From: a virus
Direction: 5' to 3' (one strand)
Length of the DNA stretch: 39,780 nt
Virus genome (UHGV): UHGV-1378608
Shown in pieces: positions 1-39,780 of this stretch. The notes beneath the pieces are model-generated. The model had not been told where the DNA came from. It searched no databases and was given only the letters and a program-made list of their open reading frames with translations. The position numbers and the translations under genes are program-made. How positions within the stretch are numbered: the stretch's first letter is position 1; the number at the start of each line of letters is the position of its first letter.

Positions 1-17
1 AATCATTCCCACTCAAT
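1..17 (+). repeat. Putative attL core (17-bp direct repeat aatcattcccactcaat)
   Basis: Exact 17-bp match with 39764-39780 at the opposite end of the element. Confidence 0.6.
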
Positions 18-94
18 TATTTACGACAAACATAACCAATTGAGTGATAACAACTTTCTCATAACTTACTTCCACCGTACCGTTCTATATACCG

Positions 95-595
95 TCACAG
101 GTTAATGGTGCCCCGCTTTTTCAGTGCGTCATACTGCTGCTCACAGGACTCACCTGCAACCCTATATCGCTCAGCTTCTTCTGCTGTTGCGACGTAAGCT
201 CGGTTGCTTTCTTCAAGCATGTCGGCGAGCACACTGATGACCTTGCTGGCTGGCGTGCCAGTGGGGAAAGTTCCGGTATAGTGTTCGGCGATTCGCTTGA
301 TCTTGTCAAGTTCTGACTGCAGGCGGCCAGAAGAGGCAGCAGCAAAATCAGCATCAGCCCGCGCAGACTCAATACGGGATAGCGCATCACGTTCAATTTG
401 TGTTTTCTCCTTATCTCGTTGTGCCCGGGCCTTATCATCAGCCTGTTTCTGATCTGACTGCGCCTGCGCGTACCCGGCGTCATACTGCCGGTCACCATGG
501 ATATTCCAGGCAACAACGCAACTGATAACCAACGCAGCAAGCATCACGACAATAAGCAACTGTTTCCAGTATGCTTTCACGAATACCCAGATCAT
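95..595 (-). CDS. Rz-like i-spanin (lysis protein)
   Basis: 166 aa; N-terminal transmembrane segment followed by charged coiled-coil-like periplasmic domain; last gene of lysis cassette directly after endolysin; contains embedded lipoprotein ORF in alternate frame. Confidence 0.6.
121..387 (-). CDS. Rz1-like o-spanin lipoprotein, embedded within the Rz-like gene in another frame
   Basis: ORF 121-540 contains an internal start giving [23 protein letters not shown]: positively charged n-region, hydrophobic core, lipobox LAAC, then a Pro/Ser-rich short mature part. Start choice (387 vs 354) uncertain. Confidence 0.45.
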   Translation of the reverse strand: MRYPVLSLRGLMLILLLPLLAACSQNLTRSSESPNTIPELSPLARQPARSSVCSPTCLKKATELTSQQQKKLSDIGLQVSPVSSSMTH

Positions 596-1218
596 AAAAG
601 CACCTTACTGGCGGTGATATACCGCGCGCGCCGGTCATCGATGCCGTTCTGCCCACCATTAATGATCTGCGTGACGCGCACCATATCGCCGGTGTACTTC
701 ATACAGCCCTTGGTGGCGAAGAACCACGCCGCGCTGCGGGCCGCATATTCGTCCTGCGTCAACAGCTCAGGATTCTCCAGCAGGTCCACTTTTAGACCGT
801 TTCCGCAGTCACGATAGTTATTCAAACCGGTAATCTGGATAAGCCCGCGCCCACGGTAAAACCAGCCGTCAGTCGGCCCGTTGTTCCCCATGCGCTTGCT
901 ATACACCAGATTGGCGATCGCACGCTGGCGCTCCAGCGGTAACGATGGCTCACCAGCACGACGGCCCAGCGCATTGGCCTGGCCCTGAGTGAGGCGCCCG
1001 GAACGGACGAATCCCGCCAGCCCGGTCACGCTGTAGTTGAAGTTCTCCTGCAGCCGGGTGAAGCCTCCAGACTCATGCCCGACCTGAGCAATAAACATTG
1101 CCTGATCTTCTGGTTTGCTGATACCAAACTCTTTCATCGCAGAAGTTATATGCGAGAACCAGCGTGCGGCCAGCGCCTCGCTAATACCAGCAGCTCGCTG
1201 GAATTGTTTAATCTCCAT
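592..1218 (-). CDS. Endolysin, glycoside hydrolase family 19-like (chitinase-like lysozyme)
   Basis: 208 aa; motifs [12 protein letters not shown] and [13 protein letters not shown] typical of GH19-type phage endolysins; sits between holin-like genes and the spanin. Confidence 0.8.
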
Positions 1219-1516
1219 GTTTAGACCTCGTTATTTTGAAAATCTGAACGACGTTACCGCGAGTTTTAAGAACCGCAGCAAGCATGACAGCATTGATAAT
1301 GACCTCAGATAAATCCACAGCCATTGGCGTGCGTAACCAGATTGCATAGACGACACGAACAGGAATACTGGCCGCAGCAACAATAAGGAAATAAGCAAGC
1401 CACCCTCCCCACCTTCGATGTTGTGAACCGTTACGCCGGAATGTGACAACACGAATTGCTATGCCAGTACAAATAAGTGCATTGGTGATAAGCAAAACAA
1501 GCTCATTAGTTACCAT
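1208..1516 (-). CDS. Small membrane protein, putative holin or antiholin
   Basis: 102 aa with hydrophobic helices ([39 protein letters not shown]); immediately upstream of endolysin. Confidence 0.5.
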
Positions 1517-1916
1517 CGCCTTTTCTCCCCGGAATTAACTCGCGTGGATTATCGGAACGGTGATAGAGCCAGATGCCAATTCGAACTGCAACGATTGCTG
1601 ACACGAATGCACCAGCAGAGAAAACAATCCCTTTCTCGAAAGAGTCCTGCGTGATGGTAGGGATCAGGCTGGCTACGCCGATAAGGATGGATGCAGTTGG
1701 TTTGTAGAAGAGAAGGCCGCAGAGAAAGCTGAGCATCGACAGGAGAACCCGGCGGCGGATCGGGTATTCGACAGCCGAGGTAACAAAGATTACCGCGCCT
1801 GCCAAAGACCCCAACGCCACTTCTGGCGGGACACCAGCGATTACCGCAGCGAGCGAACCCATACTAAGCCACTGATTTAAAGACTCACTTGTTAGCCCGG
1901 CTGACATAATGACCAC
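1506..1916 (-). CDS. Membrane protein, putative holin
   Basis: 136 aa, multiple predicted TM helices; first gene of lysis cassette downstream of tailspike terminator. Start uncertain (GTG at 1916 or ATG at 1907); a strong SD (taaggagg) at 1937-1944 precedes a 12-codon mini-ORF overlapping the start. Confidence 0.5.
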   Translation of the reverse strand: MVIMSAGLTSESLNQWLSMGSLAAVIAGVPPEVALGSLAGAVIFVTSAVEYPIRRRVLLSMLSFLCGLLFYKPTASILIGVASLIPTITQDSFEKGIVFSAGAFVSAIVAVRIGIWLYHRSDNPRELIPGRKGDGN

Positions 1917-1997
1917 CGTTTACTGTGCATAAAGAACCTCCTTAGTTGGTTCTCATATCATACACAATAAACCATATGTGTTTTAATTTGGTAACAA

Positions 1998-2037
1998 ATG
2001 AAAAAGCCCTTTAGTGAAAAACATTCATTAAAGGGCT
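1998..2037 (-). terminator. Rho-independent terminator-like hairpin after tailspike gene (minus strand)
   Basis: 9-bp perfect stem agcccttta/taaagggct with 15-nt loop, followed on the minus strand by TTTTTCATTTG. Confidence 0.5.
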
Positions 2038-2047
2038 AGATATTTAC

Positions 2048-4792
2048 TTAACCTTTAGAAAAAACAGACAGTAACGGAAGTGTAAAAGTCGACACACCAG
2101 TATTCATCATGCAGGTTTTACCACCTGAGTATCCAGATATGGTTTGCGAAACTGGACTTCCTGTTGTTGGGAAAATGGTGATTTCATCCCCCCCCTTCAA
2201 TACTCTAACTTTGCCTGTAACATCAACCGATGAACTTGAAACAGACGTGAGAGATCCATTGGTCATTGTATAAAAGTTTATAGTTCCTGTTGCTGTTCTG
2301 CTTACACCACATCCTGATTTTTGCTTCTGTTTATAGTTAAACAATACCAGCAGGCCAACAGGCATTGACTCAAGCTCAACTGCTGTAGACTGGTAGGTCT
2401 TACTGCCGTTTCTCATGTCAGGAGCCTCATCATCTGGATCAGAAAAATTATACCCAAGAGTTAAATCATTAACCGTGGCATTATTCCCTGTTATTCCTTT
2501 GACTTGATTAACACTTAACGGTATGTAATTAAACCCTGCAAAAAGCGGTGTTAACTTTTCTCTAAATAAAAGGCCTGGTGGGTATACTAACGAAGGTGTA
2601 CCATCATATGTCACTGAGATAATATTAAGTCCCTTTTTAAGGGTTCCAATGCACGTTGTTTGTTTGCCTGTAAATGATGTTAGCCCATTGCTGGCAACTT
2701 TACCTGATAGATAAGAAGAGTTCCTGATGTCATTGAGAATGACATTGAACTGGTTAACACGATCTGATGAAGTATAAGTTGGGTTATATGGCTCAAATAA
2801 TGTTACAGAGATATCGCTTGTATCACTCCATACAAAATACCGACAAATAACATTTTCATTTGAAGGCGTAATCCTTCCCCATCCACCAAGTGCATCAAGA
2901 TAATCACCTCCACTTAATATCGAAATTGATGGGTAGTATCTGGTATTTGAAGGGTATCCAATACCAATAAATGAAAGTTGCGTAGTAGGGATTAGGTTCT
3001 TATTTTTTACAGCTGTATAAACGCGCTCTTTTAATACCTCTTTTGCAGCATAAGCACCGATGTATGCATGTCCTATCGTTGATGGATGGCTCTGGTCAAA
3101 GACAGTACCGCCGTCACGTTTGGCAACATCAGATATAGAGTACGCGCCTATATCTGCATAAGCGTCAGTCGTGGCAATGGACAAATCCAAAAACTCGACC
3201 TTTGGGAAAAGGCGTTCGATACGCTTCTTAATGGCTGACTCCAGGAAAGCCTTTGGCGCATCGTTATTGTTTACAGTAACAAAGCATATCGGACAACCAT
3301 ATCCCCATGATTTTCTAATCAACTTTTCAAACTCATGAAAATACGCTTCAAATCCTATTGTTGGAAGTATTCCATTGTCATTAAAACCAAGGCTTATAAA
3401 AAGAACATCAGGAGCTTTTTTTCCATACGCAGCATTCTGGAAAAATCCATAGTCGAAGTTTTCATAACCCCAACCTGTCGCAAGTGACTTGCCAGACGAT
3501 CCGCAGTTATATGCTTTAAAAATATTATCCGTGCTGTCGGATAGCATATTGAGGCAATCAGTAAAAATTCTGAACCATGAATGCTTACCGCCATTTAAAT
3601 TATGATTGTAGTTGGTAGAGTTAAGATTTCCATCGCTACCAGTCGGGTTCGGGGTCCATCCTGAACTATAGGCTCCATCCGTTATAGAATCACCAATGAT
3701 ACCTACATGGCAATCTTCTACAGTTGATGGGTAACCCTGCTTATTTGCAAATTTAGCAATTGTTCCAAGAGCAGTAAAATCAGGGCCATTGTTAGATAGC
3801 CCAACATCAAAAACATGCTCATTACCCCATTTGTCTCTTGTGAGAATTTTACCTTCTCCAAGAAATTTAGTCACATCATCTGACGGTAAAAAATTACACC
3901 TGATGGTTACATCTTTTGGGATGTAAATCTGACCAGGGAAAGCATAAATTGCACTTCTGTTGTCAGTTGTCGTGTTAATAACGACATTTGGAACATAAAA
4001 TATTGACGTTGCGTCAGTTCTATATTGTCCGTTAACAAGCTCAGATCTGAGAACCGCATCCCCAACACCTCTCCAAGCGCCAGGACCAACACCACCAGTA
4101 GTGGTAGGAGTTGATCCTGGAGGAACTACTTTGGGCAGTGGCCCGTCCCATCTGTAGTATTCGCCGTTGCTTTCCCAGAGAAGAACATCGTTAAGATAGA
4201 TGATGGTATTACCCAACTCAAAAGATTTCTTCGTGTTATAGCCATACAATCCATTTTCTAAGGTTTCAATAATGGTGCTAAGTATGGTACTAAATTTTGC
4301 ATAAAGATCATCAGTATATTTTTTTGTAGCAGCATCTTGGGGAAGAGATGGATCACGAAGATTTCTAATATAATTTGAAAGCGCGTCATAAAAAATTGCT
4401 ACGTCATTTGGCTTTCTTAAAGCCAACTTATCATTTCTTAATGATTGTTGAATGAGCATAGTAAGTTTATCAAACGCATCCTCATGTACCTCAGCGAAGA
4501 ACTTACCCTGATTACGTAAATCCGTTTCCTGAGTAGCTGGTAGTTCTCGTGATATAGATATCTGATGACCGTTAGCCAACGCCTTCGAGAGAATTACATT
4601 ACCGCCGTTATATCCTCCAGCCCCGGTAACTGTGTAATCAGTATCAAGAGCCAGCACAGCGATATTTTCGTCAAGGTCAACCACCTGTACTACCAGATCA
4701 GATTTATTGAAAACCCTAAAGGTGTACGGAAATGATGTCGTAACGCCGTTACCTGTGTATTCGTTGTGGTCAACTTCGGTTGAGACCGTCAT
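2048..4792 (-). CDS. Tailspike/tail fibre protein with internal SGNH(GDSL)-type esterase domain
   Basis: 914 aa; N-terminal ~120 aa resembles the conserved podovirus tail-fibre anchor domain (NEYTGNGVTTSFPYTF...TDYTVT...AEVHEDAFDKLTMLIQ); residues ~360-585 carry SGNH blocks GIIGDSITDG, FISLGFNDNG and DQSHPS (Ser and Asp/His of catalytic triad). Confidence 0.8.
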   Translation of the reverse strand: MTVSTEVDHNEYTGNGVTTSFPYTFRVFNKSDLVVQVVDLDENIAVLALDTDYTVTGAGGYNGGNVILSKALANGHQISISRELPATQETDLRNQGKFFAEVHEDAFDKLTMLIQQSLRNDKLALRKPNDVAIFYDALSNYIRNLRDPSLPQDAATKKYTDDLYAKFSTILSTIIETLENGLYGYNTKKSFELGNTIIYLNDVLLWESNGEYYRWDGPLPKVVPPGSTPTTTGGVGPGAWRGVGDAVLRSELVNGQYRTDATSIFYVPNVVINTTTDNRSAIYAFPGQIYIPKDVTIRCNFLPSDDVTKFLGEGKILTRDKWGNEHVFDVGLSNNGPDFTALGTIAKFANKQGYPSTVEDCHVGIIGDSITDGAYSSGWTPNPTGSDGNLNSTNYNHNLNGGKHSWFRIFTDCLNMLSDSTDNIFKAYNCGSSGKSLATGWGYENFDYGFFQNAAYGKKAPDVLFISLGFNDNGILPTIGFEAYFHEFEKLIRKSWGYGCPICFVTVNNNDAPKAFLESAIKKRIERLFPKVEFLDLSIATTDAYADIGAYSISDVAKRDGGTVFDQSHPSTIGHAYIGAYAAKEVLKERVYTAVKNKNLIPTTQLSFIGIGYPSNTRYYPSISILSGGDYLDALGGWGRITPSNENVICRYFVWSDTSDISVTLFEPYNPTYTSSDRVNQFNVILNDIRNSSYLSGKVASNGLTSFTGKQTTCIGTLKKGLNIISVTYDGTPSLVYPPGLLFREKLTPLFAGFNYIPLSVNQVKGITGNNATVNDLTLGYNFSDPDDEAPDMRNGSKTYQSTAVELESMPVGLLVLFNYKQKQKSGCGVSRTATGTINFYTMTNGSLTSVSSSSVDVTGKVRVLKGGDEITIFPTTGSPVSQTISGYSGGKTCMMNTGVSTFTLPLLSVFSKG

Positions 4793-4987: not shown

Positions 4988-5245
4988 ATGCAGCAGTATC
5001 ACTATCCACTGGAAGACGGATTTACCGAAAGGATTCACACGCCGGGAGGCGTCAGGTCACTGGTGGAGGGATCGCACTTGATGAAATTACTCCGGGCTCT
5101 CGATAAGGATGGATTTAATGTCGATGGCCCACTTGCCGAACTGACTGCACTGATTAACTACGTCACCAGCTCACAGATGTCTATGCAGGATCTGCAAACA
5201 CATCTCGACTATTGTGCCGAACAATTACGAAAACAAATCAGGTAA
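4988..5245 (+). CDS. Small LexA-controlled moron protein (85 aa), candidate SOS-inducible antirepressor
   Basis: In-frame internal ATG of ORF 4880-5245 preceded by RBS and LexA box; the ORF-track start at 4880 would place the LexA box and RBS inside coding sequence. No confident family match by eye. Confidence 0.5.
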   Translation: MQQYHYPLEDGFTERIHTPGGVRSLVEGSHLMKLLRALDKDGFNVDGPLAELTALINYVTSSQMSMQDLQTHLDYCAEQLRKQIR

Positions 5246-5438: not shown

Positions 5439-7913
5439 TTATTGCGGAGTGACATCCTGTGGTCGCCACCAGTATGTCTGGTTAAACTCTTTCTTCGAAC
5501 GTTGCTCCATTTTACGCAAATAGCCTGGTGAAAAATACTCCTGCATCTGGTTAAAGATCATGTGATCAAGAGCTGCCTTCAAGTACCAGAGATTCGCACC
5601 TGGCATCAGCCCTTTCCCAAGTTTCACCAGATCACCACCAGTCTGCTCGTTCTTCCCTTCCACAGCATTTAATGGTATGCCCTGAGCTATCTTCACTACG
5701 TCATCAACCAGGCCAGCTACCGGGCCAAGCATCGACGCCAGCGCGCCGCTTCCGTATCTAGTGTGATCTGACAATAAAAAGTCACCGTAAAGGCCAAGAC
5801 CACCACCTTTCAGTAGAGCACCAAGCCAAAATTTAGCAGCATCTTCTCCTGTCATCTCGCGAGGATTACGACCAGACGCAAGGTCGTTAAGTTGCTGCGA
5901 CAAAGCGCCAAGAATGGTCGTACTAGCAATAAACGTCGCAATATATGCCGCACGCCCACCAGCAGACGGCATACCCATAGCGCGTGACCAGTGACGCATA
6001 ACCACCGAGATAGGGAACGATTTAAACAGGAAAACACTTCTCGTTAATTCACCTTTCCATGTTCCACGCTGAATACCAGAACCGGTTATCAGTTGCTCAC
6101 GTGCTCCCGGTGTAATAACAGCCATATCAACTTCTTCAGTTACGGCACCGAGCAGTTTACGCATTGCCTCAAATTTCACGCGTTCAGGCTCACCAAGATG
6201 TTTAACTGCTGAATCAGGGATACGCATAATGCTTTCCGGTGTCAGCATCGTATTATTACCGTTCCCCCAGTCCTCCTGTTGCGCCAGCTTCCATACGCTC
6301 CAGTCTGTGTCAGTAATCCCTTTGCTTTTCAGAATACGAAAATCAGAGTCATCGAGGCTACGAAGGTCTGGTGTCCGTGACACTACTTCTCCCAGGCTTC
6401 CCATCATGGTTACGCCATAGGCGCGCTTGTGCGCATCTGACCATGCTGTAAGCCCACTGGCACGCATTACCGCCGTTGCCGCCCAACGAGACACTGACGG
6501 CCCCATATTATCCATCGCCCAGCGGTTAACGCTGCCAAGTAGAGATTCCATCGCCAGACCAGCGCGTCGCGCCCGCGCAAGCTCAGTACGGTTCGTTGGG
6601 TCCATAGCTTCAAGCTGGTTGCGGAATAACTGGTTCATTGGAAGGTTGGTCACCTTCGCAGACAGATACATGGTTCCAAGATCAGAGAACGATGACAGCA
6701 ACGCGGATCCGAGTCTGCTGGCAACCAGCCAGTTGCGGATATTGTCAGACCATTGCGCGATGTGCGGATTCGCTACAGGCTGTGTCTTTCCGGAAATAAA
6801 GTTGTACAGATTCTCTGTGTTGTTCGCCAGCCGCTCGACTTTACCGGTTTTACTCGGGTTAGCTGTTGCCGTTTCTGCCTTAACCTGATCAAGAAGTGAG
6901 CGGAAAACATGATCGGGGTTTGGACCATATGTTTCCACCAGAGAAATATCTTTACTGATACCTTCCAGGTGACCGACCATGATTTCCCATAGAGAGCGAT
7001 CGCCATAAAGTTGTTGATATTGGAGATAGGAATCTGCATCTTTGAAATGTATCTGTCGTGATGCATTACCACGGTTAGCACGTGCGCCGGAAATTCGCAT
7101 TCCGGTATCAGTAAGCTTATTCAGCCCACCAGTAGCGATCGTGTTATAAGCCTCTCCAAGAAATGCAGACAACTCGGCATCGTTCATCAGTTGTCCATCG
7201 GATCGGGTATAATATTTGCGATCCAGCTTACCTATAACATCGCTAACCCACTTATCCTTTGATACCGCCCCAACCTTTTCCATAGAATGATGTTGAGGGA
7301 TCCCCCAGTTTTCGAGATAGCCAATGTCCCCACCAGCATCATTAAACCGGCGGCGCAGCAGCTCTGTAACTTCTCTCCACGCCTTAGCACCTTTTCTTGC
7401 TTTAGCATTGCCAGTATTTTGCCCCCGCATTTCATATACCAGGTCACGTACGCCCGCTTCATCTTCAAACAGACCAAAAAAGCGAGGATCAACTGCTTCA
7501 AATGCCTCCTGCAATTGACTCAATGCATAATCACGAGTGGCTTTTGTTCTGGATTCAACAGAGAGGAAATTCGATTTACCGTCTGCATTAAAAGCAATAG
7601 TACGGTTAAGAGCGCCAAGTTTCCCATCAGCCCCTTGATAGCTATTGATAAATTTATCCAATCTCTGACGTGCGGCTATAGTGAGAGCCACACGACGTTT
7701 CTTTAATGCCGCTTCTCGCTGTAATTCTTCAGATGCCAATTGTGCTGCACGATACAACCGTTCTGATTCGGAAAGTTGTCGCCACGACATCGGGTCATCA
7801 CGAGCAATGGAGCGCATATTTCGATAAATGCGGTCTTCAATGTTCTGTATTTCTCGCGCCGTTAACGTGCGCTGCGCCGCCTGCTGGACCGCTTGTATAC
7901 ATTCCTGTCTCAT
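5439..7913 (-). CDS. Large internal virion/ejection protein (824 aa)
   Basis: Size and position within a run of three large genes downstream of tail tubular genes, as in podovirus internal core/ejection proteins; no catalytic motif recognised. Confidence 0.55.
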   Translation of the reverse strand: MRQECIQAVQQAAQRTLTAREIQNIEDRIYRNMRSIARDDPMSWRQLSESERLYRAAQLASEELQREAALKKRRVALTIAARQRLDKFINSYQGADGKLGALNRTIAFNADGKSNFLSVESRTKATRDYALSQLQEAFEAVDPRFFGLFEDEAGVRDLVYEMRGQNTGNAKARKGAKAWREVTELLRRRFNDAGGDIGYLENWGIPQHHSMEKVGAVSKDKWVSDVIGKLDRKYYTRSDGQLMNDAELSAFLGEAYNTIATGGLNKLTDTGMRISGARANRGNASRQIHFKDADSYLQYQQLYGDRSLWEIMVGHLEGISKDISLVETYGPNPDHVFRSLLDQVKAETATANPSKTGKVERLANNTENLYNFISGKTQPVANPHIAQWSDNIRNWLVASRLGSALLSSFSDLGTMYLSAKVTNLPMNQLFRNQLEAMDPTNRTELARARRAGLAMESLLGSVNRWAMDNMGPSVSRWAATAVMRASGLTAWSDAHKRAYGVTMMGSLGEVVSRTPDLRSLDDSDFRILKSKGITDTDWSVWKLAQQEDWGNGNNTMLTPESIMRIPDSAVKHLGEPERVKFEAMRKLLGAVTEEVDMAVITPGAREQLITGSGIQRGTWKGELTRSVFLFKSFPISVVMRHWSRAMGMPSAGGRAAYIATFIASTTILGALSQQLNDLASGRNPREMTGEDAAKFWLGALLKGGGLGLYGDFLLSDHTRYGSGALASMLGPVAGLVDDVVKIAQGIPLNAVEGKNEQTGGDLVKLGKGLMPGANLWYLKAALDHMIFNQMQEYFSPGYLRKMEQRSKKEFNQTYWWRPQDVTPQ

Positions 7914-7918
7914 TTAAT

Positions 7919-31874: not shown

Positions 31875-31880
31875 GAATAG

Positions 31881-31907
31881 ATATGAAAAGACCGCCGGGT
31901 GGCGGTC
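31881..31907 (-). terminator. tR1-like terminator after the Cro-like gene (minus strand)
   Basis: Perfect 7-bp stem gaccgcc/ggcggtc with 4-nt loop followed on the minus strand by TTTTC. Confidence 0.5.
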
Positions 31908-31929
31908 TACAGAGGGTTGTAGCTGGATA

Positions 31930-32160
31930 TCATGAGTAGAAGAAGTATGCCAGTTCTGCTTTTGAGCGCAGCCATTGTCTTGTTTTACAGGCTTTAAAAA
32001 GCCCATTCATCAATACTTTACCTGGCATTTTGCGCTTACCTGTTAAGTGAGTCTGGATATAGTGACTCGTCGTTCCGGCTTCCTGTGCGAAGGCTTCACG
32101 CTCATCCGGAGTAAGTGCAAGCCAGTGCTTTTTGAAATCGAAATGTTCGTTATCGCTCAT
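31930..32160 (-). CDS. Cro-like HTH regulator (76 aa)
   Basis: Small protein with HTH-like segment REAFAQEAGTTSHYIQTHL; first gene of the leftward operon, divergent from the repressor gene. Confidence 0.5.
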   Translation of the reverse strand: MSDNEHFDFKKHWLALTPDEREAFAQEAGTTSHYIQTHLTGKRKMPGKVLMNGLFKACKTRQWLRSKAELAYFFYS

Positions 32161-32185
32161 AGCTATTGCCTGATATTTATTTCAG

Positions 32186-32214
32186 ATAATAAATATTCAC
32201 CCATAAGGTAACAA
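32186..32214 (-). promoter_or_regulatory. PR-like promoter for the leftward operon (TTGTTA-17-TATTAT on minus strand)
   Basis: -35 and -10 hexamers with 17-bp spacer that contains an operator half-palindrome; about 20 nt upstream of the Cro-like start. Confidence 0.45.
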
Positions 32215-32259
32215 AAATCAAGGATAGTTACCTATGGGGTGCATTTACCTGTTGGGTAA
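32197..32259. promoter_or_regulatory. OR-like tripartite operator (three TTACCT-N4-GGTAA-type sites)
   Basis: Sites at 32197-32211 (tcacccataaggtaa), 32228-32242 (degenerate) and 32245-32259 (ttacctgttgggtaa, perfect) in the divergent region between the Cro-like and repressor genes. Confidence 0.55.
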
Positions 32260-32314
32260 TATTGCTTTAAATTGAATCATCTACTGATTCATATATGAGG
32301 CGATTTTCCAGAAA

Positions 32315-32899
32315 ATGAAAAGTATCCAGGACGTCCGCAGGCAAAATCTCAACGACTTGATCGACCGTGAATTCAATGGTGTTCAGACGCGGATGGCAGA
32401 AAAACTTGGAACTCAGGCAAATCTGGTAAACCGCTGGGCTCTTGGCAAGAAGGTTATCGGCGACCAGGTTGCGCGAAAAATTGAAGCTGCCGCCAATAAA
32501 CCACGTAACTGGCTTGATATCGATCGCTCGCTTTCTCAGGAAGGTTTTCAGCCTGTCGGCCCGAGCGATATAGGTCAGCTGGCGGCTCACAACCTGGAAC
32601 GCTGGATGAGCGAAAGCCGCGACCTTTCAACACAGGGAAAACTTCACCGCGCATCCGGCGTCGCCCAGGTGACAATCAGCCGCCTGTTAAACAATGAAGT
32701 CAGCGTTTCCATTTCCACCCTGGAGAATGTTGCATCCGCATTCGGGCGTCACGGCTATGAATTACTGATTCACCCGCACGACCCTGCGACTATCAACTAT
32801 GATCGCTCGCGCTACGCATTGTTACCTGAAACAGAGAAGGCAAAGATCGAAAGTTACATTGAATTTGTCATCAACCAGAACGAAAAAAGCAAACAATAA
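32315..32899 (+). CDS. Phage repressor candidate, tandem XRE-type HTH, no recognisable S24 peptidase domain
   Basis: 194 aa; two HTH-like segments (VQTRMAEKLGTQANLVNRW and GVAQVTISRLLNNEVSVSISTLENVASAF); transcribed from the OR-like region toward the OL-like region, as lambda cI is. Confidence 0.55.
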   Translation: MKSIQDVRRQNLNDLIDREFNGVQTRMAEKLGTQANLVNRWALGKKVIGDQVARKIEAAANKPRNWLDIDRSLSQEGFQPVGPSDIGQLAAHNLERWMSESRDLSTQGKLHRASGVAQVTISRLLNNEVSVSISTLENVASAFGRHGYELLIHPHDPATINYDRSRYALLPETEKAKIESYIEFVINQNEKSKQ

Positions 32900-32920
32900 A
32901 ATCATATTTTTCAGTAAGTA

Positions 32921-32946
32921 AGCCGCCTCATGGCGGCTTTTTTATT
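32921..32946 (+). terminator. Rho-independent terminator after the repressor gene
   Basis: Stem agccgcc/ggcggct followed by TTTTTTATT. Confidence 0.6.
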
Positions 32947-32956
32947 GCCTATGCGA

Positions 32957-33033
32957 TTACCTTATGGGTAATTTTTTTAACTCATATCTATTGACATCAA
33001 ACCAGATACGCATAATTATTACCTCAACGGTAA
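32957..33033 (+). promoter_or_regulatory. OL/PL-like region: two perfect operator palindromes flanking a TTGACA -35 hexamer
   Basis: ttaccttatgggtaa (32957-32971), TTGACA (32991-32996), AATTAT-like -10 about 17 bp downstream, ttacctcaacggtaa (33019-33033) overlapping the -10/+1 region. Confidence 0.55.
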
Positions 33034-33052
33034 CAGACCGAGGTAACAAGTT

Positions 33053-33202
33053 ATGCAGTGGAAAATCATCAACGGTTGGTACTGCGTTACTGCATGCGGA
33101 TTCATGAGCTGGAAGTTCCGCACCTTACAGGAAGGCATTAAGTGGGCTTTCGTCAGCAAAGAAGCTCGCGATGTAGCCAACGATAACGAGATATGGGAGT
33201 AG
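33053..33202 (+). CDS. Small ORF (49 aa) at head of rightward early operon
   Basis: ATG with GAGG RBS 10 nt upstream; below ORF-track size cutoff; coding status unverified. Confidence 0.3.
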   Translation: MQWKIINGWYCVTACGFMSWKFRTLQEGIKWAFVSKEARDVANDNEIWE

Positions 33203-33210
33203 GTTAGCAA

Positions 33211-34245
33211 ATGAGTGAATTATCAATCATCGAAATCACACCAGACATGGCACCAAGAATTTACGTTGAAAAAGGGCTGGAAAAGTTTCTCGAGCAGATC
33301 CGTGAAGGTGTTAATGAAGTGCCTGACATTAGCACAGACAAAGGCAGAAAGCGCATTGCATCTCTGGCTGCGAAGGTTTCAAGAAGTAAAACAGCGGTAG
33401 AAAAACCAGGACGTGATTATCTGAAACGCCTGAAAGAACAGCCGAAAGTAGTTGAAGCAGAGTTACGACGCTTCGTAACCGAATGCGATCGGCTTCGTGA
33501 TGAAGTACGCCGCCCACTCACCGAGTGGGAAAATGCTGAGAAATTACGCACTGAAGCACTGCAACAACGCCTGACAAATTTGCGAGCACTAGCTGACGTG
33601 ATCGATCTCTCCGGAAACTACTTGCCATCATCTGATATTCAGGAACGAATTCAAGAGGCTAAATCAGTAGCACTTGATGAAAGTTGGCAGGAGTACGCAG
33701 CAGAAGCTGGAGTAGCCAAGGATTCAACCATCCAGAAACTGGAAGAATCACTCGCAGTAGCTCAAAAACGCGAGCGTGAAGCCGCTGAGCTGGAGCGACT
33801 TCGCAAAGAAGCGGAGGAAAAAGCGCGCATTGAGCGAGAAGAGAATATCCGCCGGGAAGCTGCTGAACAGGCCAGGCTCGAAGCTGAACAAAAAGCGAAA
33901 GCTGAAATTGAGGCTGCGGCACGCCTGGCGGCGGAAGAAAAAGCACGTGCAGAAGTAGCAGAACGTCAGCGAATTGAAGCAGAGCAGCGTGCACGACGCG
34001 AAAAAGAAGAAGCCGTTGCCGAGGAACGCCGACGCCAAGAGGCGGCAGAAAAAGCCCGCCTTGACGAACAGAAGCGTATCGCCGACGAAGAAGCGCGCCG
34101 AGCTGCAGATAAAGAGCATCGCCGTACCGTTAACCGCAGAGTAATCGCAGATCTGATAGCCCAAGGCATTCACGAAGAATTCGCGCAGAAAGCAATGTTG
34201 GCTATCGCTGGCGGCAAAGTGCAGGACGCGTATATCAAATATTGA
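33211..34245 (+). CDS. Large coiled-coil protein with Glu/Ala/Arg/Lys-rich repetitive region (344 aa)
   Basis: N-terminal globular part then about 150 aa of EAERxRxEAEQ-type repeats; first large gene of the recombination module. Confidence 0.45.
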   Translation: MSELSIIEITPDMAPRIYVEKGLEKFLEQIREGVNEVPDISTDKGRKRIASLAAKVSRSKTAVEKPGRDYLKRLKEQPKVVEAELRRFVTECDRLRDEVRRPLTEWENAEKLRTEALQQRLTNLRALADVIDLSGNYLPSSDIQERIQEAKSVALDESWQEYAAEAGVAKDSTIQKLEESLAVAQKREREAAELERLRKEAEEKARIEREENIRREAAEQARLEAEQKAKAEIEAAARLAAEEKARAEVAERQRIEAEQRARREKEEAVAEERRRQEAAEKARLDEQKRIADEEARRAADKEHRRTVNRRVIADLIAQGIHEEFAQKAMLAIAGGKVQDAYIKY

Positions 34246-34246
34246 G

Positions 34247-34552
34247 GTGGGTATGAACGTTAATCAGCAGAAAAATCTTCAAAAAATCATGCTGGCATTC
34301 GACAAGGACTACCGTCTGTCAGAACAGCTATATGACCGACAAGTTGAACTGATTGAGAGTATCCGGCTTCATCAACTGGCATCAACTTTCGACGTTGTAA
34401 CAGTTAAAGGCGTTCGCCAGGAAGTACTGGAGGCCGCTAAAGACAGCCCTGAGTTCGAAGAACTAATGGATGCCTACCGGCGCGAGGCAATGGCAATTAT
34501 CGCCCGCTGGGATCTGGCTGATCAGCTTGATGGGCAGAGGGACGCGGCATGA
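34247..34552 (+). CDS. Hypothetical protein (101 aa)
   Basis: Translationally coupled ORF between the coiled-coil gene and the exonuclease. Confidence 0.45.
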   Translation: MGMNVNQQKNLQKIMLAFDKDYRLSEQLYDRQVELIESIRLHQLASTFDVVTVKGVRQEVLEAAKDSPEFEELMDAYRREAMAIIARWDLADQLDGQRDAA

Positions 34553-35370
34553 AACCGGGAATTTATTTCGACATCAGCAACGAAGACTACCACGCCGGTG
34601 ACGGCGTGAGTAAGTCGCAACTGGACATGGTTGCCAAGAATCCGGCGCTTCTTAAATGGGTTCAGGCAGCACCAGAAGACGAAGAGAAAAAGTCTGCACT
34701 GGATATGGGAACCGCATTGCACTGTCTGCTTCTGGAGCCTGGAGAGTTCGACAAACGCTTCATTGTTTCACAGAAATTCGATCGTCGGACGAAACAAGGT
34801 AAAGCTGACGAAGAGGAATTTCTTCGTGATGTGGCGGATATGGGGATTACGGTACTTGATGCCGAGCAGTGGCGGAAACTGGAGCTGATGCGTGATAGCG
34901 CAATGGCTCACCCGGCGGCACGCTGGATGCTGGAAGCACCTGGTTACTGCGAAGCATCAATGTACTGGAACGATGAAGAGACGGGGGAGTTGTGCCGAAT
35001 TCGTCCAGACAAATGGCTGAACGAGCACAACGTGATCGTCGACGTGAAAAAGGTTGCAGATATGGACCGTTTTGCACGCCACATCGAGGAATTCCGCTAC
35101 CACGTGCAGGACGCAATGTACCGCGAAGGCGCAATGAGGGTTACTGGTCAGCCGCATGGTTTTTTCTTTCTTGCCGTGAGCGAAAGCATTGATTGTGGTC
35201 GGTATCCGGTACGCGTGTTCGAGCTGGATGCGCAGGATGTCGATGCCGGGCACGCTCTGTTCCGCCGGGATCTGAATACCTATCACGAATGCCGCATCAA
35301 TGATGAATGGGGCGGTGTGGAAATCATTAAACGCCCTGAGTGGGCACGCAAACAGGATATGTACATATGA
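34549..35370 (+). CDS. PD-(D/E)xK exonuclease (YqaJ/RecE-like recombination exonuclease)
   Basis: 273 aa; candidate PD-(D/E)xK motif IRPDKW...VIVDVKK; directly upstream of and overlapping a RecT-like gene. Confidence 0.7.
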   Translation: MKPGIYFDISNEDYHAGDGVSKSQLDMVAKNPALLKWVQAAPEDEEKKSALDMGTALHCLLLEPGEFDKRFIVSQKFDRRTKQGKADEEEFLRDVADMGITVLDAEQWRKLELMRDSAMAHPAARWMLEAPGYCEASMYWNDEETGELCRIRPDKWLNEHNVIVDVKKVADMDRFARHIEEFRYHVQDAMYREGAMRVTGQPHGFFFLAVSESIDCGRYPVRVFELDAQDVDAGHALFRRDLNTYHECRINDEWGGVEIIKRPEWARKQDMYI

Positions 35371-36308
35371 GCAACGACATCGCAAACATCAACGCACCAG
35401 TAGACACAGCAATCGCTGGAACTGCTGCAACTATTTTCAGCCCAGACGGCTTGAACCAACTGATGAAATTCGCCGAGGTAATGGCGCAAAGCCGCGTAAC
35501 GGTACCGGCGCACCTCGCCGGGAAACCAGCTGATTGCATGGCCGTGGCAATGCAGGCTGCGCAGTGGGGAATGAACCCGTTTGCCGTGGCTCAGAAAACC
35601 CATGTTGTGAACGGCACGCTAGGTTATGAAGCCCAATTAGTAAACGCAGTTATCTCAACGATGTCGCCAACAAAAGATCGCATCAACTACGAGTGGTTTG
35701 GGCCGTGGGAACGCGTGATCGGTAAGTTTGTTGAGAAAACATCCAAAAACGGCAATCCATATATCGCACCAGGCTGGACTCTAAAAGACGAAGAAGGCTG
35801 CGGTGTTCGCGTATGGGCAACCATGAAGGGCGAGGATCAACCTCGAGTGCTTGAGTTAATGCTGTCTCAAGCACAGGTAAGAAACTCCACACTTTGGGCC
35901 AGTGATCCGAAACAACAACTCGCATACCTTGCGACAAAACGCTGGTCTCGCCTGCACTGTCCTGACGTAATCATGGGCGTCTACACCCCAGACGAATTAC
36001 AGGAAACGGCACCGCGCGTTGAGCGAGACATTACTCCGCAAACGACAACTGCTGCGGGAATGAACAGTCTGATCAACGCTAAAACAGTGAAAAAGCCTGA
36101 TGAGCAAACGCGTAAAGCGGATAGCCGTGATCCAGAAGAAATGCTGATGGCCTTTACCAGCGCAGCGATGAATTACAGCACTGTCTCCGAACTGGATAAG
36201 GCTTACAAATACATTGCACAAAAACTTTCAGATGATGACGAACTGCTGGCAAAAGCCACCGACGTTTACAGCGTTCGTCGGGAAGAATTAAACGAAACAT
36301 CTATGTAA
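35367..36308 (+). CDS. RecT-family single-strand annealing recombinase
   Basis: Synteny with the exonuclease (ATGA overlap); size and composition consistent with RecT; start taken at MSNDIANINA. Confidence 0.6.
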   Translation: MSNDIANINAPVDTAIAGTAATIFSPDGLNQLMKFAEVMAQSRVTVPAHLAGKPADCMAVAMQAAQWGMNPFAVAQKTHVVNGTLGYEAQLVNAVISTMSPTKDRINYEWFGPWERVIGKFVEKTSKNGNPYIAPGWTLKDEEGCGVRVWATMKGEDQPRVLELMLSQAQVRNSTLWASDPKQQLAYLATKRWSRLHCPDVIMGVYTPDELQETAPRVERDITPQTTTAAGMNSLINAKTVKKPDEQTRKADSRDPEEMLMAFTSAAMNYSTVSELDKAYKYIAQKLSDDDELLAKATDVYSVRREELNETSM

Positions 36309-36357
36309 CCACCACCGCGGCGCCACGCGCGCCGCACTGCAACCAAGAGAGGTATTT

Positions 36358-36606
36358 ATGAAAGGTGCATTAGGTAAGAAGGAACTCCTGGCGGTGGTGC
36401 CACTGTCATGGAGCACTATCGACCGTATGGAGCGCGCAGGTGAATTTCCTAAACGCTGGTATATCACTGACAAACGCTGCGCATGGAACCGTGACGAAGT
36501 TGAGCGTTGGCTTGATGAACGTCAGGCAGCAAGCCCGGCAGAGTTCCAGGGTAAAAAGCCTCCTGTTCAGCAACGTGTATATCGTCCTGTGAGCAACGCT
36601 GCATGA
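36358..36606 (+). CDS. AlpA-family DNA-binding protein, candidate excisionase
   Basis: 82 aa; pattern STIDRMERAGEFPKRWYITDKRCAWNRDEVERWL resembles AlpA/Xis-like regulators. Confidence 0.55.
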   Translation: MKGALGKKELLAVVPLSWSTIDRMERAGEFPKRWYITDKRCAWNRDEVERWLDERQAASPAEFQGKKPPVQQRVYRPVSNAA

Positions 36607-36715
36607 GTGCGCTGCTAAGGCACTGGAGCAAATGGTCAGGATGGTACTTATTCCTGGCCTCTGTTTCAGCATGGCTTTATCTGCTGGCATTAATTTTCAG
36701 AGAGGGTTGGATTAA

Positions 36716-37015
36716 GTGAGAAAGTTAAGCCGACTTGAAAAATATCACATGAACAAGGTTTCAATGCGCAGCCCTTCAAAGATTGTCGCCGTTACTCCTG
36801 CGGCGATAGAGATCGAAAAACGCGCGATTGAAAGAGAGAAAAAAGGGCAATTCCGCATTGCCGCTCACCTTTGGCTTCAGTGTATGGATGTTGCTTCTGG
36901 TGATGTTGAACGTGCAAGGATCGCGGTTCGCAGGGACCAATGTATCACAAAAGGTAACGGCCTTCGCCGTGGCGACTATAGCGGCATAGGATGTTGTGGG
37001 GTGGTTTATGACTAA
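36716..37015 (+). CDS. Hypothetical protein (start uncertain)
   Basis: ORF immediately upstream of the methyltransferase; no family recognised. Confidence 0.35.
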   Translation: MRKLSRLEKYHMNKVSMRSPSKIVAVTPAAIEIEKRAIEREKKGQFRIAAHLWLQCMDVASGDVERARIAVRRDQCITKGNGLRRGDYSGIGCCGVVYD

Positions 37016-37658
37016 GAAATACACACTAATCTATGCAGATCCACCCTGGGTATACCGGGACAAAGCCGCAGATGGTAATCGCGGTGCCAGTTTTAAATAT
37101 CCGGTTATGAGTGTGATGGATATCTGCCGCCTTCCTGTGTGGGATTTGGCCGATGAAAACTGTCTGTTGGCCATGTGGTGGGTGCCAACACAACCACTCG
37201 AAGCGCTAAAAGTTGTTGAAGCCTGGGGATTCCGTCTGATGACCATGAAGGGCTTCACGTGGATAAAATGTGGTAGTCGACAACCAGATAAACTGGTTAT
37301 GGGTATGGGGCACATGACTCGCGCCAATAGTGAAGATTGCCTGTTTGCGGTAAAGGGAAAGCTACCTACGCGCATTAATGCAGGGATCGTTCAGTCATTT
37401 ACCGCACCGCGGCTTGAGCATTCAAGAAAACCAGATATCGTTCGTGAAAAACTTGTGCAATTGTTAGGCGATGTTTCTCGCATTGAACTGTTCGCCCGCC
37501 AGACGTCTCATGGCTTCGATGTTTGGGGTAATCAGTGCGAAGACCCGGCAGTGCAACTACACCCTGGATACGCGTTGGATATTGGCGGATTAACAAATGC
37601 ATTCAGCAATGCTCCGGTGTCACCAATAGACAACCAGGGGCGGGAGCGTGCAGCATGA
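37008..37658 (+). CDS. MT-A70-family N6-adenine DNA methyltransferase
   Basis: DPPW catalytic motif ([10 protein letters not shown]); start taken at ATG 37008 (MTKKYT) rather than the GTG at 36996. Confidence 0.75.
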
Positions 37659-38314
37659 ACCTATATCAACGCATCAATGGCGCTGACTGGTGCAATATCT
37701 TCGTCGTCGGCGATCTGCATGGGTGCTACACGCTGCTGATGAACGAACTCGACAAAGTTTCATTCGACCCGGCGCGCGATTTACTTATTTCCGTTGGTGA
37801 CCTTGTTGACCGCGGCGCTGAAAACGTCGAATGCCTGGATTTGATTACTATGCCGTGGTTCCGAGCTGTTCGTGGCAACCATGAGCAGATGATGCTGGAT
37901 GCACTGGTCAACGGCGGAAGTTTCGGACATTGGATGTCAAACGGCGGTGGATGGTGGCACCAACTTGATTCTGAGCAGGATGTGCAACTCAAATACCTTC
38001 TGCCAAAGATTACCAACCTCCCGATGATTATCGAACTGGTTACCGGCAATAAGAAGGTCGTCATCTGTCACGCAGACTACCCGCACAACGAATACGCATT
38101 CGATAAGCAAGTACCAGAAGAAATGGTGATATGGAATCGTGAGCGGGTTAGCGACGCGCAGGACGGTATTGTCTCGGAGATAACCGGTGCCGATTTGTTC
38201 ATCTTCGGTCATACGCCAGCACATCACCCACTGGTGTATGCAAACCAGATGTACATCGACACCGGCGCAGTGTTCTGCGGAAATCTGACGCTTACCAAAG
38301 TCCAGGAAGGATAG
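37655..38314 (+). CDS. Ser/Thr protein phosphatase (lambda-type metallophosphatase)
   Basis: Metallophosphatase motifs GDLHG, GDLVDRG, GNHE; start MNLYQRING overlaps the methylase stop. Confidence 0.75.
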
Positions 38315-38316
38315 AA

Positions 38317-39573
38317 TTATTTATTACTGTCTTCCATCCACCTCTCAAACTTCGACGGGGAGAACGGAATCAGATCCGTATGCTCCCCGTTAATCCAGGA
38401 ATCAATCATATCGGCCCACTGCTGCAACATGTAGGCGCGCTGTCTGGCGTATTCCGCTTTGTTATATACGGCGCGCACACCTTTCTGCTCATGTGCCAGA
38501 GCCTTTTCAATCCAGTCTGAAGGATAACCAGCCTCATGCAACAACGTACTTGCTGTACGGCGCATATCGTGTACGGTGAAGTCCTGAATATGCTCACCAT
38601 CTTCATTTATTATTTTCACCGTTCTGTCGATCAGAGAGTTCAGCGCGGCATTAGATAATGGCTTCCGGAAATTGTAACGACCAGGAACCAGATATTCACT
38701 TCCACCAGCGCACATCTGCAACCCAACCAATATATCCTGTGCCTGTTTAGGCAGGTAAATAACGTGCGCCCGGCTTCCCTTCATGCGGTCTGGAGGAATT
38801 GTCCATGTCCATTTTTTAAAATCTATTTCATCCCACGTTGCATTGGTGAATTCGCCCTTACGAACCATAGTGATAAGCACCAGTTTTAAAGCCATTTTCA
38901 TAGTGCCCATAGCACCAATGGCATCCAGCGTGCGGAAGAACAGGCCAATTTCTTCTGGTGTCAGTGTTCGCTCTCGTGGTTTAAATATGGCGATAGACGA
39001 AGGTTTAATGTCAGCCGCAGGATTAAACAAACCATGACCACGGTCATTGGCGTGACGGTATACGCTACTGATGATCTCCCTGGCCTGCACTGCTGTTGCC
39101 CGGCCACCGCGTTCGACAATCCGGTCACACAAATCACGAACCATCGATGTGGTAATTTCAGCCATCATTTTATTGCCAAGAACCGGAAGTATGTCACGGT
39201 CGATCACCGCCTGTTTCATTGCGCGGGTACTGTCAGCCAGGATGACGTGTTTCATATAACTGTCGGTATGTACCGCAAACGTCTCGGCACCACGAATCTT
39301 TTTGATACCGTCACGTTTAGCCGCAGCCGGTGACTGGCCTGCTTTAAGCAGCTTCTTTGCAGCAATCAGTTCTTCTCGCGCTTCTGCCAGGCTGATACCG
39401 TCACGCCCATACTGCCCGATTACCAGTGTTTCGCGGCGACCGTTGATACGGTAGTCATAGCGAAACGAGACCGTGCCTGACGTAAGCACAGCTACATACA
39501 GCCCGTCACGATCGGAGACCTTGTACAGTTTGTCCTGCGGCTTGAGGCTTTTTAATTTTGTATCGGTAAGCAC
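38317..39573 (-). CDS. int: Tyrosine integrase
   Basis: 418 aa; N-terminal arm-binding-like domain and C-terminal catalytic domain (HDMRRTASTLL, ALAHE, terminal Tyr region); adjacent to right attachment repeat. Confidence 0.85.
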   Translation of the reverse strand: MLTDTKLKSLKPQDKLYKVSDRDGLYVAVLTSGTVSFRYDYRINGRRETLVIGQYGRDGISLAEAREELIAAKKLLKAGQSPAAAKRDGIKKIRGAETFAVHTDSYMKHVILADSTRAMKQAVIDRDILPVLGNKMMAEITTSMVRDLCDRIVERGGRATAVQAREIISSVYRHANDRGHGLFNPAADIKPSSIAIFKPRERTLTPEEIGLFFRTLDAIGAMGTMKMALKLVLITMVRKGEFTNATWDEIDFKKWTWTIPPDRMKGSRAHVIYLPKQAQDILVGLQMCAGGSEYLVPGRYNFRKPLSNAALNSLIDRTVKIINEDGEHIQDFTVHDMRRTASTLLHEAGYPSDWIEKALAHEQKGVRAVYNKAEYARQRAYMLQQWADMIDSWINGEHTDLIPFSPSKFERWMEDSNK

Positions 39574-39615
39574 AATTCACCCGTATAGAAACCATTTTCA
39601 TGACGGTATGAGAGT

Positions 39616-39630
39616 ATACCTTTAAGGTAA
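39616..39630 (+). promoter_or_regulatory. Operator-like palindrome ATACCTTTAAGGTAA upstream of int, nested in a longer inverted repeat
   Basis: Flanked by tgacggtat (39601-39609) and ataccgtca (39630-39638); about 45 bp upstream of the int start. Confidence 0.45.
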
Positions 39631-39695
39631 TACCGTCACCTGTACCGACGAAAAATATGGTGTAGAGTGAATAGAAATGAATACATAAAAACAAA

Positions 39696-39719
39696 AACCC
39701 TCTGTAAAAACAGAGGGTT
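39696..39719 (-). terminator. Terminator-like hairpin between attR and int (could block read-in from the host flank)
   Basis: 9-bp stem aaccctctg/cagagggtt with 6-nt loop, followed on the minus strand by TTTTTGTTTTTATG. Confidence 0.45.
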
Positions 39720-39763
39720 AAATTAGTATCTGAATAGGAATGAGTTGCTATGAGTTAGCTGTT

Positions 39764-39780
39764 AATCATTCCCACTCAAT
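39764..39780 (+). repeat. Putative attR core (17-bp direct repeat aatcattcccactcaat)
   Basis: Exact match with 1-17. Confidence 0.6.

Follow-up and report, generated by a model that had tools for sequence, protein, structure and literature searches.

A probable phiV10-like prophage cut exactly at its 17-bp att cores, with the 3' end of guaA as its target

The window, i.e. the whole stretch of 39,780 nt analysed here, is with little doubt an integrated Uetakevirus prophage that appears, from sequence comparison, to be cut exactly at the cores of attL and attR and to have the 3' end of guaA as its target. A direct repeat of 17 bp had been claimed at both extreme ends by a sequence-only reading of this DNA, and it was borne out. 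The 17-mer AATCATTCCCACTCAAT occurs exactly twice in the window, at 1-17 (attL core, with the yfgI side of the host just outside the window) and at 39764-39780 (attR core, the minus strand of which reads ATT GAG TGG GAA TGA TT), both copies being on the plus strand. No further copy was found in the window when up to 2 mismatches were allowed; the chance expectation was 0.01, and none of 100 shuffles gave 2 matches. The unit genome of the phage is 39,763 bp. The same reading had placed the integrase about 190 bp inside the right repeat, with a terminator-like hairpin between them, and both features were found there: the int ORF (38317-39573, minus strand) starts 190 bp from the right copy of the core, and an intrinsic terminator lies at 39696-39719 on the minus strand.

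The integration target had been considered unidentifiable from the window, but it can now be named. The reverse complement of the core, ATTGAGTGGGAATGATT, consists of the last four guaA codons (I-E-W-E), the stop codon and 2 more bases, and this coding match, together with the flanks of lysogens and the empty attB, locates the site at the guaA 3' end, between this gene and yfgI. In 561 complete E. coli genomes carrying int (counted at a coverage of at least 80%), the core and the annotated 3' end of guaA overlap. Approximately 10% of the complete E. coli genomes carry int, which adjoins guaA wherever checked, and as GIsul2-type islands share the site, the guaA 3' end is thus a recurrent hotspot. 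The 15 core bases that lie within guaA encode the nearly universal C-terminus of GuaA, which may explain why the target is stable.

The host DNA flanking the repeats, which the sequence-only reading had proposed to inspect, was found in E. coli lysogens with exactly the arms of the window: their left flank is yfgI-yfgH-yfgG-pdeF, and their right flank is guaA, followed by guaB. In lysogens L132-L139, ...GGGTCA or ...GGGATTAA directly precedes the attL core, which is followed by a phage arm identical to that of the window, and in L001 and L140-L145 the attR core is directly followed by GGTAGCTGGCGG..., which is guaA, and then by guaB. As the window contains no host DNA, its own flanks were deduced from these lysogens with identical arms and proteins, and are expected to be ...CAGAGGGTTTTGTTCATTCATAGTGCAGGG(TCA or ATTAA) on the left and GGTAGCTGGCGGCTTGCC (guaA) on the right. 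In only one lysogen could both ends be traced to one contig; its prophage measures 37,668 bp versus 39,780 bp, and because of this difference in length it is a relative and not the source. The left 2 kb of the window showed at best ~86% identity in complete E. coli genomes, and an exact 46-mer across attL had no match in the GTDB species representatives. The exact P' arm is also present in IMG/VR contig L007, but joined to the phosphatase gene.

The four att configurations and the exact limits of the core are established here by comparing the sequences of the occupied, empty and free forms. Host DNA lies directly outside each copy of the core in the lysogens with identical arms, and both the empty site and the free phage contain one copy; the empty attB of K-12 has different bases on the flanks of this single copy. 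Immediately left of the core, attB and attL have A where attP and attR have T; immediately right of it, attB and attR have G where attP and attL have T. Since the identity between phage and host spans exactly 17 bp and the flanking bases mismatch, the core ends at the window edges. The possibility that the true core extends beyond these edges was therefore not sustained, a core longer than 17 bp being ruled out by the mismatching bases on either side, and the limits agree with the published core (PMC9782041). The prophage can thus be delimited to a single base, and guaA is left intact.

Virion genomes and a 41-kb circular replicon contain one copy of the core, located between the spanin gene and int. 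When the ends of the window were joined at one core, the joined sequence was contiguous at 89-92% identity in the phage records Tyrion and PAT1 (800 nt compared) and phiV10 (484 nt compared), and it was also contiguous in the circular pHL15EC-2. The view that the whole window is one prophage between attL and attR was upheld by this contiguity in virion genomes and in a circular replicon, by a gene content collinear with that of phiV10-like phages, and by the host DNA outside the repeats of lysogens with identical arms.

A terminal repeat may also arise when a free circular phage genome is assembled or circularised with overlapping ends, and the window, which contains phage genes only and starts and ends exactly on the repeat, would fit such an origin, as would the existence of circular assemblies of such phages. 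However, the repeat is exactly the att core published for the genus (PMC9782041), a 17-mer on which an arbitrary break would not land. Free or circular forms hold a single copy, and in them int is the neighbour of the spanin gene. Host DNA is found outside both copies in the lysogens with identical arms, and the GenBank prophage record phiv142-3 has the same start and end, which makes an assembly overlap very improbable. Still harder to maintain, to the point of being nearly negligible, is a composite or tandem array in which the prophage is accompanied by another element that targets guaA, for instance a satellite or an island of the GIsul2 type. Unrelated elements do share the guaA 3' end, e.g. 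GIsul2, which recombines at GAGTGGGA (PMC9376610), but only two copies of the core were found at up to 2 mismatches, the genes follow the order of one phiV10 genome of similar size (39,763 bp vs 39,104-39,565 bp), and the window contains no second integrase, each large ORF having a match to a phage family. Neither a third core copy nor a foreign element was seen inside the window.

The prophage might also be a defective, cryptic remnant that is no longer able to excise or to form particles, since the related copies found in complete genomes frequently show degradation, as in strain 214-4, where the copy is disrupted by IS66. We consider this unlikely, though less so than the two preceding explanations, as the modules are all full length, the integrase motifs are intact and both att cores are present. 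By analogy, the close relative ZX5, which is spontaneously induced from lysogens, also argues for a functional prophage.

The int product is a P4/CP4-like tyrosine recombinase with an arm-binding domain. It matches the Pfam families Arm-DNA-bind_3, Phage_int_M and Phage_integrase (PF13356, PF22022 and PF00589), all above the cut-offs, as well as the phrog_1 integrase (1.7e-87), and its N-terminal domain matches the solved arm domains of CP4-like integrases 3ju0 and 3jtz. The translation contains VRKGE, HDMRR and AHEQKGVRAVY, corresponding to the Arg, His-x-x-Arg and His/Tyr signature; these catalytic motifs were assigned by eye against the family pattern and not from a structure, and the window's own copy would be expected to catalyse recombination. 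A promoter scan of 39300-39780 found no sigma-70-like int promoter. The gene at 36358-36606 (plus strand) codes for a small DNA-binding protein of the AlpA family (Pfam Phage_AlpA; phrog_66 excisionase and transcriptional regulator), which is likely to act as an excisionase or directionality factor.

The window holds the complete and apparently intact genome of a temperate Uetakevirus podophage (phiV10/epsilon15 group), as judged from BLAST summaries of the whole genome and from PHROG/Pfam annotation. Every large ORF matched a phage family, and all phage modules are present at full length. On the minus strand are the lysis cassette (95-1916; an Rz-like spanin, a GH19 endolysin and two holins), the tailspike (2048-4792; an epsilon15-type N-terminal adaptor with G7C gp63.1-like SGNH esterase and galactose-binding-like domains), the virion module (5439-21196; structural, internal and tail proteins, major head protein, protease and portal), the large and small terminase subunits (23400-25546), and a replication initiator with a P-like helicase loader (29966-31563). 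The plus strand carries a tRNA-Arg (UCU) at 21846-21919 (ARAGORN; Rfam RF00005 at 73.3 bits), which is also found in phiV10 and is annotated in relatives, an HTH repressor (32315-32899), an exonuclease VIII-like protein with a RecT-like annealing protein (34549-36308), an MT-A70 DNA methyltransferase next to the int region (36996-37658) and a NinI-like Ser/Thr phosphatase adjoining int (37655-38314). PADLOC gave no convincing match to a defence system among the accessory ORFs.

Compared with phiV10, PAS61 and phiv142-3, the window showed 96-97% identity over 82-86% of positions 1-25000, and 65-73% of positions 25000-39780 were covered at 96-97% identity. The core ATTGAGTGGGAATGATT lies 190 bp 5' of int and attB is at the guaA 3' end, as in Uetakevirus. 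The phiV10 genome (NC_007804) shares with the window the identical 17-bp core, its 190-bp spacing to a P4-type int, the P-arm terminator, the module order and the tRNA-Arg, at 96-98% identity over most of the genome. The two differ, however, in the tail fibre and in an O-acetyltransferase (oac): phiV10 encodes oac, whereas the window lacks it and has the G7C-like esterase tailspike; a DUF1382 gene stands next to int in phiV10 in place of the NinI-like phosphatase, and RecE-RecT, annotated as fused in phiV10, are two ORFs in the window. Prophage phiv142-3 of the APEC strain DE142 (MN187550) is ~97% identical over 73-82% and, as its GenBank record begins and ends at the window's positions, shares its attL/attR boundaries; it differs in a lysis-end variant and in accessory genes. 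For vB_EcoP_ZX5 (MW722083), the attP was shown to be attgagtgggaatgatt, located 190 bp 5' of int, by PCR and Sanger sequencing of attB, attL and attR (PMC9782041). According to that paper, phiV10 and epsilon15 also have this 17-mer as their proven attP/attB. A phiV10-like phage inserted in guaA has also been described (PMC3293862). ZX5 and Salmonella phage epsilon15 have the attP/attB sequence at the guaA 3' end like the window, but differ in host serotypes and tailspikes. The epsilon15 repressor has only 42% homology with that of ZX5 (PMC9782041), and the epsilon15-type record VB_ST_E15 is ~84% identical to the window across the att region. The boundaries, the guaA target, the core sequence and the phage group were thus already known, and the finding, although correct, is an ordinary one, mainly of use for correct annotation.

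The P4/CP4-57-type integrases, which target tRNA/tmRNA 3' ends, have the same domain architecture as the window's int and, in both cases, the target gene is restored on integration by the 3' end that attP supplies. In contrast to these types, the target of the window is the end of a protein-coding gene, and no more than 15 nt of coding sequence are duplicated. GIsul2, a resistance island and not a phage, encodes int and alpA and integrates at the guaA 3' end, its crossover GAGTGGGA lying inside the window's 17-mer (PMC9376610). Integrases with arm domains were found on Acinetobacter plasmids at ~25% identity, and their link to GIsul2 is putative.

Integration would start from circular phage DNA with attP between the spanin gene and int, the 17-bp core being 190 bp upstream of int. 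Int would carry out recombination between this core and its identical 17-bp counterpart at the chromosomal guaA 3' end, and guaA would retain its last four codons and stop, because the exchange falls inside the identity. The prophage would then lie between guaA and yfgI, flanked on both sides by a copy of the core, moving the native guaA terminator ~39.8 kb away and replacing it by a phage look-alike, which may end guaA transcription and shield int from read-through. Excision would be the reverse reaction, probably assisted by the AlpA-family protein. In close relatives the junctions have been demonstrated by PCR and Sanger sequencing (PMC9782041).

The P-arm terminator (39719 to 39696, minus strand) consists of a 10-bp stem with a 4-nt loop, AACCCTCTGT-TTTT-ACAGAGGGTT, followed by the T-run TTTGTTTTT, and scores as an intrinsic terminator. 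The minus strand of 39670-39780 folds with a dG of -36.2 kcal/mol (z = -7.1). In a lysogen the hairpin comes 46 nt after the guaA stop codon and stands upstream of int. It is listed as a terminator in the phiV10 annotation and is kept in the attP of relatives from E. coli, Enterobacter, Salmonella and Klebsiella. Its only counterpart in E. coli chromosomes is the native guaA/yfgI terminator, 24 nt from attB, with which it matches at 25 of 27 aligned bases, the 10-bp stem being identical; other Enterobacterales, namely Raoultella, Citrobacter, Erwinia and Tatumella, have an unrelated GCCCGCG-type terminator at the guaA site, and yet the phage hairpin is conserved in relatives whose listed hosts are Salmonella, Klebsiella and Enterobacter. 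Tentatively, and with more doubt than confidence, we suggest that the hairpin in the P arm is homologous to the guaA/yfgI terminator specific to E. coli, and that DNA passed in the past between the attB flank and attP. If true, either the phage took up the terminator of its host or a phage left it in E. coli as a scar, and the phage, on integrating, actively replaces the 3' UTR and terminator of guaA. No account of such an exchange was found in the accessible literature, and this likeness is the only, mildly new point, a small evolutionary footnote.

Candidate sites for Int were also found on both arms of attP, which may be a complex site of the lambda type, with arm-type sites around a core. 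The motif ATACCGTCAC occurs in 5 exact copies in the window (0.04 expected) and is conserved across four host genera; one copy lies in the P arm (39630-39639, plus strand) and one in the P' arm (89-98, plus strand), where it overlaps the spanin stop codon. These copies are putative arm-type sites, as is an inverted copy of ATACCGTCA in the P arm (39601-39609, minus strand), which was suggested by the repeat search and by its conservation in relatives. Two core-like 13-mers lie on the plus strand: TGAATAGAAATGA (39668-39680), inverted relative to the core and in a block conserved among relatives, and TGAATAGGAATGA (39731-39743), which is 85% complementary to the core bases TCATTCCCACTCA and makes up an inverted repeat with them. 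A further conserved inverted repeat, CACTCAATTATTTA / TAACCAATTGAGTG (10-46), bridges the core's right edge and the P' arm.

The 17-bp sequence AATCATTCCCACTCAAT occurs twice in the window, at 1-17 and 39764-39780, against a chance expectation of 0.01, and a search of the window with up to two mismatches tolerated returned no third copy. The large ORF at 38317-39573 on the minus strand, whose start lies 190 bp inside the right copy, encodes a tyrosine integrase (phrog_1) with arm-binding, central and catalytic domains and the Arg, His-x-x-Arg and His/Tyr motifs. A hairpin located between int and the core (39719..39696, minus strand), with a 10-bp stem and a T-run, was scored as an intrinsic terminator and folds far more stably than shuffled sequence (z = -7.1). 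The terminal direct repeat, the adjacent integrase and the terminator-like hairpin described in the sequence-only reading were thus all confirmed.

The reverse complement of the repeat, ATTGAGTGGGAATGATT, reads I-E-W-E-stop plus two bases. When the int-to-end segment was compared with complete E. coli genomes, matches were found in 564 genomes, with a coverage of at least 80% in 561, and guaA was annotated under the match in 20/20 among the matches listed. The gene order in strain 214-4 is phosphatase fragment, int, guaA, guaB and xseA, and the left end of related prophages adjoins yfgI-yfgH-yfgG-pdeF. K-12, which has no prophage at the site, carries the 17-mer once, at the stop codon of guaA in the guaA/yfgI interval. 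The window alone could indeed not name the integration target, as had been stated, but these comparisons identify it as the 3' end of guaA. This att system is that of a known phage genus, and its target was already known. The pattern CCNCCNGCNACNATTGAGTGGGAATGA (PPATIEWE-stop) was found at at least 120 loci in species-representative genomes (L011-L130), including, among the matches listed, Pseudomonas, Burkholderiales, Bacillota, Bacteroidota, Planctomycetota and Actinomycetota. Among available gene ends, the coding segment of the core therefore ranks with the most conserved. The part of the core inside guaA, …CCN CCN GCN ACN ATT GAG TGG GAA TGA, uses the same codons across many bacterial phyla (at least 120 loci).

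The flanks were read from contigs encoding the exact spanin or the exact phosphatase of the window, which itself contains no host DNA. In eight lysogen contigs the same spanin, endolysin, holins and 914-aa tailspike are followed by yfgI, yfgH, yfgG and pdeF, and in six contigs the same phosphatase and a 418-aa integrase are followed by guaA and guaB. By alignment, attL (left copy) is host ...GGGTCA or ...GGGATTAA, core, TATTTACGACAAAC..., and attR (right copy) is ...GAGTTAGCTGTT, core, GGTAGCTGGCGG.... The base preceding the core is A in attL and in attB, the empty chromosomal site, and T in attR and in attP of the free phage; the following base is G in attB and attR and T in attP and attL. 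As the flanking bases differ on both sides, the common core is exactly 17 bp long and ends at the window edges. The suggested inspection of flanking host sequence, made on these lysogens, thus located the prophage at the guaA 3' end/yfgI, and the idea that the core might extend past the window edges was not upheld. The attL of one metagenomic lysogen (ENA ERZ28604242 scaffold_21) has an additional C in the core, TCATTCCCCACTCAAT, attributable either to a sequencing error or to variation in the core.

Phage ZX5 inserts at the guaA 3' end; its attP core, attgagtgggaatgatt, lies 190 bp from the int 5' end and is identical to attB at the guaA 3' end, and attB, attL and attR were amplified and Sanger sequenced (PMC9782041). 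According to the same paper, the sequence was previously proven to be attP in phiV10 (Perry 2009) and in epsilon15 (Kropinski 2007). A phiV10-like phage is present in guaA of an O103:H25 outbreak strain (PMC3293862), and the genomic island GIsul2 likewise uses the guaA 3' end (PMC9376610), its recombination sequence GAGTGGGA (PMC9376610) falling within the 17-bp phage core. The att configurations are documented by sequence here and by experiment in relatives. In the phage circle, attP sits between the lysis genes and int. In the proposed mechanism, Int would recombine the 17-bp core of attP with the identical sequence at the end of guaA, leaving GuaA unchanged because the exchange lies within identity and placing the prophage in the guaA-yfgI interval. 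Excision would be the reverse reaction, in which the AlpA-family protein (36358-36606) probably serves as directionality factor. We infer both catalysis by the window's own Int copy and the Xis role of the AlpA-family protein.

The right end of the window was joined to its left end via one core copy (800 nt). The resulting sequence is found uninterrupted in the deposited genomes of Enterobacter phage Tyrion (92%) and Salmonella phages PAT1, 65FD and 66FD (89%), and the joined ends are unbroken across the core in phiV10, ZX5, PAS61 and others. The annotated order in phiV10 and Tyrion is Rz-like spanin, attP region with terminator, and integrase. The same joined arrangement is found in pHL15EC-2 (NZ_CP079771.1), a 41,027-bp circle deposited as an E. 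coli plasmid. An excised circular phage genome would have this appearance in an assembly. Most probably, pHL15EC-2 represents an excised Uetakevirus genome and not a plasmid. Its gene order is Rz, attP, int, DUF1382 and methyltransferase.

A 5.1-kb viral contig (IMGVR_UViG_3300029074_000008) matches the window without a difference in the stretches read either side of a junction, at 5017-5040, where window positions 37757-37770 are joined to 11-17. The phosphatase gene (...GTTTCATTCGACCC) is joined directly to ACTCAAT and the P' arm (spanin side of attP), and 37771-39773, comprising the rest of that gene together with int and the P arm (int side), is missing. The junction falls within the att core, at a pseudo-core (TCATTCgaCCC vs TCATTCCC), and may stem from a deletion, either by aberrant Int action or through microhomology, or from chimeric assembly.

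Conserved blocks emerged when the attP regions of phages with E. coli, Enterobacter, Salmonella and Klebsiella as recorded hosts were aligned. A repeated conserved motif, ATACCGTCAC, is present at 39630-39639 (+) and 89-98 (+) and as an inverted copy at 39601-39609; with further copies within the int ORF, the exact copies number five in all, versus 0.04 expected. Core-like 13-mers, TGAATAGRAATGA, inverted relative to the core, are located at 39668-39680 and 39731-39743, and an inverted repeat at 10-23/33-46. Together these elements extend over ~275 bp and could plausibly serve as arm-type and accessory sites.

The phage hairpin (39696-39719), AACCCTCTGT-TTTT-ACAGAGGGTT, has a 10-bp stem identical to that of the K-12 guaA/yfgI terminator, AACCCTCTGT-TACT-ACAGAGGGTT (read on the guaA, minus, strand; 1909-1932 of L003, the K-12 guaA region), which lies 24 nt from attB. 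In a sensitive search with the 49-nt phage segment, 5377 of the 5426 E. coli genomes gave a match, at a median of one site per genome and typically over 25/27 bases; in the one non-lysogen example examined, this site is the yfgI-guaA spacer. The native terminator therefore appears to be the sole chromosomal counterpart of the phage hairpin in E. coli. An unrelated GCCCGCG-type terminator is found 3' of guaA in Raoultella, Citrobacter, Erwinia and Tatumella. Given the E. coli-type match and the unrelated terminator of the other genera, a resemblance by chance is unlikely, which suggests that DNA was exchanged in the past between the attB flank and attP. The phage copy would end guaA transcription and shield int.

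The first 25 kb of the window are 96-97% identical over 82-85% to PAS61, phiV10, typing phages 9 and 10, ZX5 and phiv142-3, and the remainder is 97-98% identical over 65-73% to phiv142-3, PAS61 and phiV10; the unit genome measures 39,763 bp, compared to 39,104 bp for phiV10. PHROG and Pfam scans assigned a lysis module (spanin, endolysin, holins), the tailspike, a virion module (virion, internal and tail proteins, major head protein, protease, portal), terminase subunits, a replication initiator and P-like loader, an HTH repressor, exonuclease VIII-like and RecT-like recombination proteins, an AlpA-family protein and PerC, and, near att, an MT-A70 methyltransferase, a NinI-like phosphatase and the integrase. 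With this full module set, no second recombinase in the window by these scans and no third core, the proposal of a single prophage bounded by att repeats holds, and this prophage appears intact.

GC content is even except for the tailspike segment (2-4 kb), the lowest in the window at 39%. In the tailspike (2048-4792, minus strand), an N-terminal adaptor of the epsilon15 type is joined to G7C gp63.1-like domains, among them an SGNH/GDSL esterase. The gp63.1-type tailspike deacetylates O-antigen in G7C. An O-acetyltransferase gene lies beside the tail fibre in phiV10, whereas the window has none. The NinI-like Ser/Thr metallophosphatase gene (37655-38314, plus strand) adjoins int, a position occupied in phiV10 and pHL15EC-2 by a DUF1382 gene; this amounts to a swap of cargo at the att-proximal end. 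Two further plus-strand ORFs are without counterpart at their positions in phiV10: 33211-34245 (344 aa, phrog_1376), just 3' of the repressor region, to which neither Pfam nor PADLOC gave an assignment, and 22658-23398 (246 aa, phrog_4780), in the interval between terL and the Sf6 gp66-like gene, with only weak matches to Pfam PEARLI-4 (below cut-off) and LmuB (E = 4e-4). A tRNA-Arg (UCU) gene (21846-21919, plus strand; Rfam 73 bits) overlaps the 3' end of the opposite-strand ORF 21852-22103, which is homologous to the hypothetical protein phiV10p04. The tRNA carries an annotation in typing phages 9 and 10 and phiv142-3, is present but unannotated in the phiV10 RefSeq record, and probably explains the BLAST matches to Synechococcus phages.
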